A stretch of 64,000 nt of DNA from Escherichia coli. Its GTDB lineage: Bacteria > Pseudomonadota > Gammaproteobacteria > Enterobacterales > Enterobacteriaceae. Position 1 is the stretch's first letter; the number at the start of each line of letters is the position of its first letter. This document shows, piece by piece, positions 33,463 to 36,433 of the stretch. Made by a program: the position numbers and the translations under genes. The stretch lies in NCBI RefSeq assembly GCF_003018235.1, contig NZ_CP027437.1; one strand, 5' to 3'. The notes beneath the pieces are model-generated. The model was not told the DNA's origin, ran no database searches, and saw nothing but the letters and a program-made list of their open reading frames with translations.

Positions 33463-34827
33463 ATGATTAGTGCATTCGATATTTTCAAAATTGGGATTGG
33501 TCCCTCCAGTTCGCATACCGTGGGGCCAATGAATGCCGGAAAAAGTTTTATTGATCGGCTGGAAAGTAGCGGCTTATTAACCGCGACGAGCCATATTGTG
33601 GTCGATCTGTACGGGTCGTTGTCACTGACGGGCAAAGGCCATGCCACGGATGTCGCCATCATCATGGGACTGGCAGGAAACAGTCCGCAGGATGTTGTCA
33701 TTGATGAGATCCCTGCATTTATAGAGTTAGTAACGCGCAGCGGGCGGCTGCCAGTGGCATCTGGTGCGCATATTGTTGATTTTCCTGTAGCAAAGAACAT
33801 TATCTTCCATCCCGAAATGTTGCCTCGCCATGAGAACGGAATGCGGATCACTGCCTGGAAGGGACAGGAAGCGCTATTAAGTAAAACCTATTACTCTGTC
33901 GGCGGCGGGTTTATTGTCGAAGAAGAACACTTCGGCCTGTCGCACGATGTCGAAACGTCCGTACCTTACGATTTCCACTCAGCAGGTGAACTGCTGAAAA
34001 TGTGTGATTACAACGGCCTGTCTATATCTGGTCTGATGATGCACAACGAGCTGGCGCTGCGCAGCAAAGCGGAAATTGACGCCGGTTTTGCCCGTATCTG
34101 GCAAGTGATGCATGACGGTATTGAACGCGGGATGAACACTGAAGGCGTGCTGCCTGGTCCGCTCAATGTGCCGCGTCGTGCCGTAGCGCTGCGTCGTCAG
34201 CTGGTTTCCAGCGATAACATCTCTAACGATCCGATGAATGTCATCGACTGGATCAATATGTACGCGCTGGCGGTTAGTGAAGAAAACGCAGCTGGCGGGC
34301 GTGTGGTAACGGCACCGACTAACGGTGCGTGCGGCATTATTCCGGCAGTGCTGGCTTATTACGATAAGTTCCGTCGTCCGGTAAACGAGCGGTCAATTGC
34401 CCGCTATTTTCTGGCCGCGGGGGCTATTGGCGCGCTGTATAAAATGAACGCCTCCATCTCTGGCGCGGAAGTCGGCTGTCAGGGGGAGATTGGCGTGGCC
34501 TGTTCAATGGCGGCGGCAGGGTTAACTGAACTACTGGGCGGCAGTCCGGCGCAGGTATGCAATGCGGCGGAAATCGCGATGGAGCATAACCTTGGGCTGA
34601 CCTGCGATCCGGTTGCCGGACAGGTACAAATCCCGTGCATTGAACGTAATGCCATTAATGCCGTGAAAGCAGTAAACGCCGCGCGGATGGCGATGCGCCG
34701 CACCTCGGCACCGCGTGTTTCACTCGATAAAGTGATCGAGACGATGTATGAAACCGGCAAAGATATGAACGATAAATACCGCGAAACATCACGCGGAGGA
34801 CTGGCTATTAAAGTGGTCTGCGGCTGA
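33463..34827 (+). CDS. tdcG: L-serine dehydratase TdcG (Fe-S)
   Basis: Start at [19 protein letters not shown] (454 aa); serine dehydratase alpha/beta family. Confidence 0.9.
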
Positions 34828-34850
34828 CATTACTGTCAGCTTTCATCCTT

Positions 34851-34878
34851 GGGTGCACAAATGTGCACCTTTTTTTTG
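34851..34878 (+). terminator. Rho-independent terminator of tdc operon
   Basis: GGGTGCACAAATGTGCACC hairpin followed by T8. Confidence 0.7.
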
Positions 34879-35101
34879 TGATCTGCCGCAAATAGAGAAT
34901 GAATATTCTCTTGCAGTTAATTTAGTAGAAAATTCTTATCCATCTCCGTTATTTCAAAGTCTTGATTGTGAAGATTTTCTCTGACCTCGCGCGTATCATT
35001 TCTTTATTCTAATAACTCGCCTGCAAAAACGTAGACCGCATATCGCCTTGATGCGGCTCGGAAAAAAATAATAAGCCCTACAAAATATTGAGCGAGAAAT
35101 T

Positions 35102-36433
35102 ATGGAAATTGCATCGAATAAAGGCGTCATTGCAGACGCTTCGACCCCGGCGGGTCGTGCTGGAATGAGTGAGAGCGAGTGGCGAGAAGCGATCAAATTC
35201 GACAGTACTGACACCGGCTGGGTGATTATGAGTATCGGGATGGCGATTGGCGCGGGGATTGTTTTTCTCCCGGTGCAGGTCGGTTTGATGGGATTGTGGG
35301 TATTTTTGCTCTCATCGGTGATTGGTTACCCGGCAATGTATCTGTTTCAGCGGTTGTTTATTAATACGCTGGCAGAATCACCAGAATGTAAAGATTACCC
35401 GAGCGTCATTAGCGGTTATTTAGGTAAAAACTGGGGCATCCTGTTAGGTGCACTCTATTTCGTAATGCTGGTGATTTGGATGTTCGTCTATTCCACCGCC
35501 ATCACCAACGATAGTGCTTCCTACCTGCATACCTTCGGCGTGACGGAAGGGTTGCTGTCAGACAGTCCCTTTTATGGTCTGGTACTGATTTGCATTCTGG
35601 TGGCGATCTCCTCACGCGGCGAGAAATTGTTATTCAAAATTTCGACGGGGATGGTGCTGACCAAGCTGCTGGTGGTCGCGGCGCTGGGCGTGTCGATGGT
35701 GGGAATGTGGCATCTGTATAACGTCGGTTCGCTACCGCCGCTGGGGCTGCTGGTGAAAAACGCCATTATTACGCTGCCGTTTACCCTGACGTCGATTCTG
35801 TTTATCCAGACGTTAAGCCCGATGGTGATCTCTTATCGCTCGCGGGAAAAATCGATTGAAGTAGCGCGGCATAAAGCATTGCGGGCAATGAATATCGCGT
35901 TTGGCATTTTGTTTGTCACCGTCTTTTTCTACGCCGTGTCGTTCACGCTGGCGATGGGACATGACGAAGCGGTAAAAGCCTACGAGCAGAATATTTCCGC
36001 GCTGGCGATTGCCGCACAGTTTATTAGCGGTGATGGCGCAGCGTGGGTGAAAGTGGTCAGCGTCATTCTCAATATCTTTGCTGTAATGACTGCATTCTTT
36101 GGCGTCTATTTAGGCTTTCGCGAAGCAACGCAAGGGATCGTAATGAACATCCTGCGTCGCAAGATACCTGCCGAGAAGATTAACGAAAATCTCGTTCAGC
36201 GCGGCATCATGATTTTCGCCATTTTGCTGGCCTGGAGCGCCATCGTACTGAACGCCCCGGTGTTGAGCGTCACCTCTATCTGTAGCCCGATTTTCGGCAT
36301 GGTAGGGTGCCTGATCCCGGCGTGGCTGGTTTACAAAGTACCGGCATTGCACAAATACAAAGGGATGTCTCTGTACCTGATTATCGTCACTGGTTTGTTG
36401 CTTTGTGTTTCTCCGTTCCTGGCATTTTCTTGA
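35102..36433 (+). CDS. cyuP: Cysteine/serine transporter CyuP (YhaO)
   Basis: 443-aa HAAAP-family membrane ORF, paralogous to TdcC. Confidence 0.85.
   Translation: MEIASNKGVIADASTPAGRAGMSESEWREAIKFDSTDTGWVIMSIGMAIGAGIVFLPVQVGLMGLWVFLLSSVIGYPAMYLFQRLFINTLAESPECKDYPSVISGYLGKNWGILLGALYFVMLVIWMFVYSTAITNDSASYLHTFGVTEGLLSDSPFYGLVLICILVAISSRGEKLLFKISTGMVLTKLLVVAALGVSMVGMWHLYNVGSLPPLGLLVKNAIITLPFTLTSILFIQTLSPMVISYRSREKSIEVARHKALRAMNIAFGILFVTVFFYAVSFTLAMGHDEAVKAYEQNISALAIAAQFISGDGAAWVKVVSVILNIFAVMTAFFGVYLGFREATQGIVMNILRRKIPAEKINENLVQRGIMIFAILLAWSAIVLNAPVLSVTSICSPIFGMVGCLIPAWLVYKVPALHKYKGMSLYLIIVTGLLLCVSPFLAFS

Follow-up and report, generated by a model that had tools for sequence, protein, structure and literature searches.

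The 18-bp palindrome at 34894-34911 of the window, the 64-kb stretch of Escherichia coli DNA analyzed here, is best read as an auxiliary distal operator for the AsnC-family activator CyuR and not as an anaerobic-regulator site. Comparison across Enterobacterales suggests that it may be the distal member (box 1) of a three-box Lrp/AsnC-type array for CyuR at the cyuPA promoter, a reading to which we assign a probability of roughly 0.5. The palindrome is unlikely to be the principal CyuR site; boxes 2 and 3 are better conserved and lie nearer the core promoter. The features of the region, with distances counted from the putative transcription start site (TSS), are as follows.

34851-34877, plus strand: tdcG intrinsic terminator (hairpin 34851-34870, then a T-run to 34877).
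34877-34892, unstranded: candidate CRP/FNR-family site TGTGA-TCTGCC-GCAAA, TGTGATCTGCCGCAAA, centred at 34884.5 (about -121.5) and ending 1 nt before the palindrome.
34894-34911, unstranded: box 1, the palindrome AGAGAAT-GAAT-ATTCTCT, at about -103.5.
34926-34940, unstranded: box 2, TAGAA-AATTC-TTATC (tAGAA-N5-TTCT), centred at 34933 (about -73).
34966-34981, plus strand: box 3, TTGTGAAGATTTTCTC, the promoter-proximal conserved element, from -40 to -25 (centre about -31.5).
34994-34999, plus strand: putative -10, TATCAT (TATGAT in most genera), a conserved T-A-T-x-A-T at a fixed 12-nt gap after TTTTCTC.
35006, plus strand: putative TSS, an invariant A after a pyrimidine, 7 nt past the -10, placed by conservation.

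E. coli converts cysteine to H2S anaerobically mainly by way of cyuPA, which has been tied to gut H2S levels, to the reduction of azo dyes and drugs, to antibiotic tolerance, and to virulence (PMC9040844, PMC10653809, PMC11408624). Cysteine induces cyuPA more than 50-fold via CyuR (DecR/YbaO), and a cyuP-lacZ fusion requires Crp and cAMP, with direct Crp action left open and the site unmapped (PMC9040844). CyuR activates cyuPA and cdsH and is bound upstream of cyuP and cyuR (PMC9040844, PMC11408624, PMC5934670, PMC6237786); genomic SELEX and ChIP-exo located it upstream of yhaO/cyuP and of cyuR at the level of regions (PMC5934670, PMC6237786, PMC11408624). A single CyuR motif has been defined, GAAwAAATTGTxGxxATTTsyCC; it comes from the regions upstream of cyuR, and CyuR without cysteine bound it in vitro (PMC11408624). 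ChIP-exo coordinates for CyuR near cyuP are absent from the Rodionova 2024 supplements, and PMC10791167, PMC5423876, and PMC7767077 hold no site information.

The palindrome (AGAGAATGAATATTCTCT) is part of the 274-bp spacer that separates tdcG (stop at 34827) from cyuP (ATG at 35102). In the inverted-repeat listing it has perfectly complementary 7-bp arms around the 4-nt spacer GAAT, and its core can be written as GAGAA (34895-99)-N6-TTCTC (34906-10), centred at 34902.5. The initial annotation had described an 18-bp near-perfect inverted repeat following the tdc terminator, about 190 bp before cyuP, and both points are correct: the two central pairs are mismatched, and the repeat starts 17 nt past the tdcG T-run and ends 191 nt 5' of the cyuP ATG. 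The tdcG terminator is the boundary of the regulatory region and is separate from the palindrome.

Taken alone, the palindrome is statistically unremarkable and within chance expectation. Perfect inverted repeats with 7-bp arms and 0-8 nt spacers number 72 in the window, compared with 42 ± 6 in dinucleotide shuffles, and 17% of dinucleotide-shuffled versions of 34878-35101 (224 bp) contain at least one such repeat. It is the sole perfect GAGAA-N4-7-TTCTC in the 64 kb. The exact palindrome was found in 2989 of 5426 complete E. coli genomes; the K-12 version, AGAGAATGAATATTCTCC (...ATTCTCC), has lost the outermost pair, and the window strain is not K-12. The surrounding 70-mer (34872-34941) is exact in only 41 of the 5426 genomes, most of which differ at 2-3 positions, and no part of the spacer varies more within Escherichia than 34901-34925, from the left arm of box 1 to box 2.

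A total of 80 cyuP loci from species-representative genomes, covering about 24 Enterobacterales genera and many of them without tdcG upstream, were compared. Gap-free anchoring on TTTTCTC-12 nt-TAT(G/C)AT (TATNAT) succeeded for 72 of 78 cyuP promoters, and dereplication at <80% identity left 49 promoters for the counts. Inspection of the 72 anchored promoters revealed a fixed register of box 3, box 2, and box 1, with a CRP/FNR-type site just upstream. TTTTCTC (34975-81) is near-invariant across 24 genera and always lies 12 nt 5' of the -10. Box 3, with the pattern TTGTGAnnTTTTTCTC across the anchored promoters, spans the region of the usual -35 hexamer. A consensus promoter scan found no sigma-70 -35/-10 pair and no recognisable -35, and the missing -35 fits an activator-dependent promoter, for which A35006 is the likely transcription start. 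Box 2 has AGAA at -49/-48 from the anchor in 25 of the 49 promoters and TTCT at -40/-39 in 22, and it scores at least 7/10 against GAGAA-N5-TTCTC in 43; its right half is degenerate in E. coli (TTATC vs the usual TTCTC). The box centres (34902.5, 34933, and 34974.5) give spacings of 30.5 and 41.5 bp, which place the boxes upstream of the promoter whole helical turns apart.

The left half of box 1 is the better conserved part. Its AGAA stands at -80/-79 from the anchor in 29 of the 49 promoters and within 1-2 nt of that register in 34, and it is kept in most Enterobacteriaceae, including genera without tdcG or with unrelated DNA upstream, so that the left half is to be counted as cyuP promoter sequence. 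When the alignment was restricted to Escherichia, Salmonella, and Citrobacter, it gave an invariant AGAA (34896-99) in the left arm and a variable right arm, and its picture of a simply unconserved right arm is, by the wider anchored comparison, too pessimistic. TTCT follows the left AGAA in 11 of 34 promoters (N5 in six, N6 in three, and N7 and N8 in one each). Box 1 scores at least 8/10 to GAGAA-N5-TTCTC in 9 of 49 promoters, against 0.26 ± 0.47 in shuffles, although the sequences are related and the conserved left half contributes much to this count. Kluyvera lacks the right half of box 1, and no clear box 1 is present in Buttiauxella, Yersinia, Proteus, and Edwardsiella, all four of which have boxes 2 and 3. 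The E. coli centre, TGAATA, is A/T-rich but six nucleotides long, whereas box 2, the cdsH boxes, and most box 1 orthologues have N5; read at N5, E. coli box 1 matches in its left half only.

The main alternative, possible if rather unlikely, is that only this left half (tAGAGAA) is functional, as a half-site or as part of a composite with the CRP site, and that the right arm and the symmetry arose by accident in a stretch that is T-rich and evolves fast. The right arm differs among Escherichia and has been lost from Salmonella and several Citrobacter, the spacer is N6 vs the N5 of related boxes, the outer pair is already lost in K-12, and chance alone produces the palindrome class in the 17% of shuffles given above. 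A fortuitous right arm is harder to reconcile with the retention of TTCT 6-7 nt past AGAA in all seven Escherichia-clade sequences compared, despite heavy surrounding divergence, and with the recurrence of TTCTC at N5-N6 in unrelated Atlantibacter, Trabulsiella, Pseudenterobacter, an Enterobacter MAG, and the loci L052 and L058. Across the comparison, TTCT at N5-N7 occurs in 10 of 34 promoters, where a rough estimate from composition would predict about one.

Further evidence for a CyuR operator comes from the distribution of the motif. With 536 kb of DNA flanking the cyuP promoter zones as background, GAGAA-N5-TTCTC at 9/10 or better occurs at 1.84 per kb in the promoter zones vs 0.011 per kb in the flanks (160-fold), and the N6 form at 0.31 vs 0.022 per kb. 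The motif co-occurs at the second CyuR-controlled locus. E. coli K-12 (NC_000913.3) carries a perfect AGAGAA-AAAAA-TTCTCT (L081 1856-1872) 12 nt 5' of the cyuR/decR ATG; its 6-bp arms, AGAGAA/TTCTCT, are identical to those of the cyuP palindrome, and it is distinct from the published CyuR 23-mer (L081 1816-1838), which lies about 35 nt apart. All nine cyuR/cdsH spacers examined have (G/T)AGAA-N5-TTCTC, i.e., K-12 and eight genomes with cyuR divergent from cdsH (Salmonella-labelled, Citrobacter, Enterobacter, Buttiauxella, Cronobacter, Kosakonia, Yokenella, and Shimwellia, the last with a weaker copy, GAGTA...TTCCC). The distance to the cyuR ATG was measured as 12 nt in five of the eight non-E. 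coli spacers and is about 10 nt in L082; L092 and L094 fell outside this measurement.

In the cdsH direction, a TATGCT-like -10 follows the palindrome after about 68 nt, and GCAAC-N2-TTTTTTC stands 12 nt before that -10, a layout equal to boxes 2 and 3 of cyuP. Box 2 is the positional equivalent of the cdsH palindrome, with 68 nt to the -10 in both promoters, and box 3 is positionally homologous to the 23-mer published for the cdsH/cyuR spacer. Taken on its opposite strand, that motif is the cdsH box 3, with GGCTAAATGGCAACAATTTTTTC, 12 nt, and TATGCT (L081 1816-1838; L084, L085, L086, L087, L093, and L094). Because the published motif is the reverse complement of the box-3 region, CyuR binding of the box-3 type has in vitro support (PMC11408624). 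The AGAA-TTCT palindrome would then add a second element, hitherto undescribed, to the cyuP and cdsH promoters; our search of the accessible literature returned no earlier description of the cdsH-box palindrome. In E. coli, which lacks cdsH, the cyuR-proximal palindrome looks like a cdsH promoter relic or an extra autoregulatory site.

The published 23-mer has no match at the cyuP palindrome in a scan of the spacer and the whole window. Its best matches in the spacer, 34959-34981 (minus strand) and 35025-35047 (plus strand), each carry 8 mismatches in 23 positions, which is the background level of the window; the first of them falls at box 3. The suggestion that the palindrome binds the cysteine-responsive regulator of cyuPA is partly upheld: the comparative data favor a conserved cyuP promoter box of a palindrome type that recurs at cyuR/cdsH, while the unmatched motif, the poorly conserved right arm and N6 spacing, and the rank of box 1 as the least conserved of the three boxes count against it.

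CyuR is 33% identical to Lrp, and the two have the stretch T-P-C-x-x-R-x-x-R-L-E of the HTH region in common. The Lrp SELEX consensus is YAGHAWATTWTDCTR, and AGAA-N5-TTCT is congruent with its core. The similar HTH regions and this fit raise the idea that a protein other than CyuR binds the box, either the global regulator Lrp or the LysR-type YhaJ, which we regard as improbable. The box type is specifically associated with the two promoters that CyuR activates, with the 160-fold enrichment described above, and by hand count the E. coli N6 copy reaches at best 10/15 against the Lrp 15-mer; a literature search for Lrp ChIP data on yhaO found nothing usable. YhaJ shifted a fragment of about 300 bp from upstream of yhaO (cyuP) in EMSA and had a 1.5-2-fold effect on a yhaO reporter (PMC4699771). 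However, the main text of the YhaJ ChIP-seq paper does not contain the word yhaO, and the motif it reports, T-N11-A, is an odd-length dyad that an even palindrome of 18 bp cannot centre (PMC6765310).

A role in RNA, whether the palindrome forms a hairpin when transcription reads through from tdcG or serves as a second terminator, is highly implausible despite a predicted 7-bp stem that extends to 10 pairs (dG -8.7 kcal/mol), since the palindrome lies beyond a strong terminator, its A/U-rich stem has no U-run after it, and its arms decay independently with no compensatory changes and no Rfam match (a scan of 34780-35160 gave sub-threshold chance matches only).

Several known element types were compared with the palindrome and rejected. 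As an intrinsic terminator it was unreported by the terminator scan, and its A/T-rich stem is followed by TGCAG. A Fur box has a 7-1-7 structure (tGATAATnATTATCa) with GATAAT-type arms 1 nt apart; the arms GAGAAT/ATTCTC agree with GATAAT at 5/6 positions, but they are 4 nt apart and the right arm is not conserved. No T-N11-A of a LysR-type YhaJ box is centred on the palindrome axis. The ArcA half-repeat is GTTAATTAA, and the ArcA-like GTTAATTTA at 34916-34924 is one half-repeat whose second is absent and which is not conserved even within Escherichia. Both TTGAT-N4-ATCAA (FNR) and TGTGA-N6-TCACA (CRP) are absent within 34894-34911.

With the FNR and ArcA consensus sequences absent from these 18 bp, the initial annotation's alternative of an anaerobic regulator was not borne out for the palindrome. 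The idea could fit the adjacent site at 34877-34892, which matches CRP at 8/10 and FNR at 7/10 positions. CRP half-sites of at least 8/10 were found in 29 of the 49 dereplicated cyuP promoters, in two registers one helical turn apart (-99/-98 and -109/-108). In Escherichia, Citrobacter, and Pseudescherichia the adjacent site resembles a CRP site, and some Enterobacter and Lelliottia have an FNR-like version (TTGAT-N4-ATCAC, 9/10). Crp may act on cyuPA directly through this candidate site, a point left open earlier (PMC9040844), and the site would then offer a direct explanation for the Crp dependence of the operon. The effect of FNR on cyu genes is reportedly indirect, via FnrS (PMC10653809).

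Two further observations were made at this locus. The cyuP 5' leader contains a conserved stem-loop at 35030-35061 (stem 35036-41/35051-56, loop ATCGCCTTG; about +31 to +51) with AUCG(C) in the loop. The AUCG(C) motif is found in a hairpin loop in 38 of 49 dereplicated leaders, and the stems vary by compensatory changes (CCGCAU/AUGCGG, CUGC/GCAG, GUUGC/GCAAC, and CUCAUU/GGUGAG), with no match to an Rfam family. In E. coli VL40 (NZ_CM177011.1, L090 256-455), similarity to the window ends at about 34926 and is followed by an IS3-like IS600 transposase gene, and the cyuP regulatory region of this strain is apparently disrupted by an IS element between box 1 and box 2.

Under the preferred reading of the palindrome as a distal CyuR operator, cysteine-activated CyuR would switch on the -35-less cyuPA promoter through three boxes, its dimers recognising (G/T)AGAA-N5-TTCTC dyads. 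The principal CyuR sites would be box 2 (-73) and box 3 (-40 to -25), both common to the cdsH promoter. Box 1, 30.5 bp or about three helical turns upstream of box 2, may give a higher-order CyuR oligomer a third point of cooperative contact; such oligomers with cooperative contacts are usual in the Lrp/AsnC family. Given that the right half of box 2 is degenerate in E. coli, the symmetric box 1 may compensate, and a CRP dimer adjoining box 1 at -121.5 could help to shape the CyuR complex. The palindrome sequence, its conservation and register, and the presence of the motif at both CyuR-controlled loci are observed; CyuR binding to box 1, its cooperativity, and the TSS position we infer from sequence comparison.

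A tentative and, on balance, doubtful extension holds that CyuR has two DNA-recognition modes and that the palindrome array is a cysteine-dependent 'activation code' common to cyuPA and cdsH. The 23-bp motif of the box-3 type would be occupied without cysteine, and a cysteine-bound oligomer would engage AGAGAA-N5/6-TTCTC dyads that stand in phase near -73 and -103. The dyads and CRP (at -121.5) would jointly wrap the upstream DNA and activate the -35-less promoter, and the cyuR-proximal palindrome of E. coli would be a relic of a lost cdsH promoter.

The sole defined CyuR motif, coming from the cyuR promoter, leaves the cysteine-dependent activation of cyuPA unexplained, and a box common to the cyuP and cdsH promoters offers concrete bases to mutate. 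Its practical value would lie in promoter dissection, in the definition of the CyuR regulon, and in the design of cysteine/H2S biosensors. As a putative operator upstream of a known target of its regulator, the palindrome is an ordinary kind of feature with small conceptual novelty.

Among known systems, the CRP (TGTGA-N6-TCACA) and FNR (TTGAT-N4-ATCAA) sites resemble it as activator-binding palindromes in front of catabolic or anaerobic operons, and one candidate abuts the palindrome, but the palindrome itself has neither consensus. The published CyuR auto-repression motif has the regulator and regulon in common with it, and its site matches box 3 of cyuP in position; the palindrome does not match that motif, which was established with cysteine-free CyuR on the promoter of cyuR itself. 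The operators of the Lrp/AsnC family (YAGHAWATTWTDCTR, phased arrays) resemble it in the dyad AGAA...TTCT core, the A/T-rich centre, the helical-turn spacing of boxes, and the location upstream of an activator-dependent promoter, and the candidate regulator CyuR is an AsnC-family protein with an Lrp-like HTH region. They differ in that the E. coli palindrome has a centre of 6 nt and not 5 and that its partner boxes are better conserved. The palindrome of the cdsH (ccdA) promoter has AGAGAA/TTCTCT arms in K-12, belongs to a CyuR-activated gene, and is followed by a TTTT(C/T)TC-12-TATGMT core; it differs in having N5 and in occupying the place of box 2, 68 nt from the -10, whereas the cyuP palindrome lies one box further upstream with N6.
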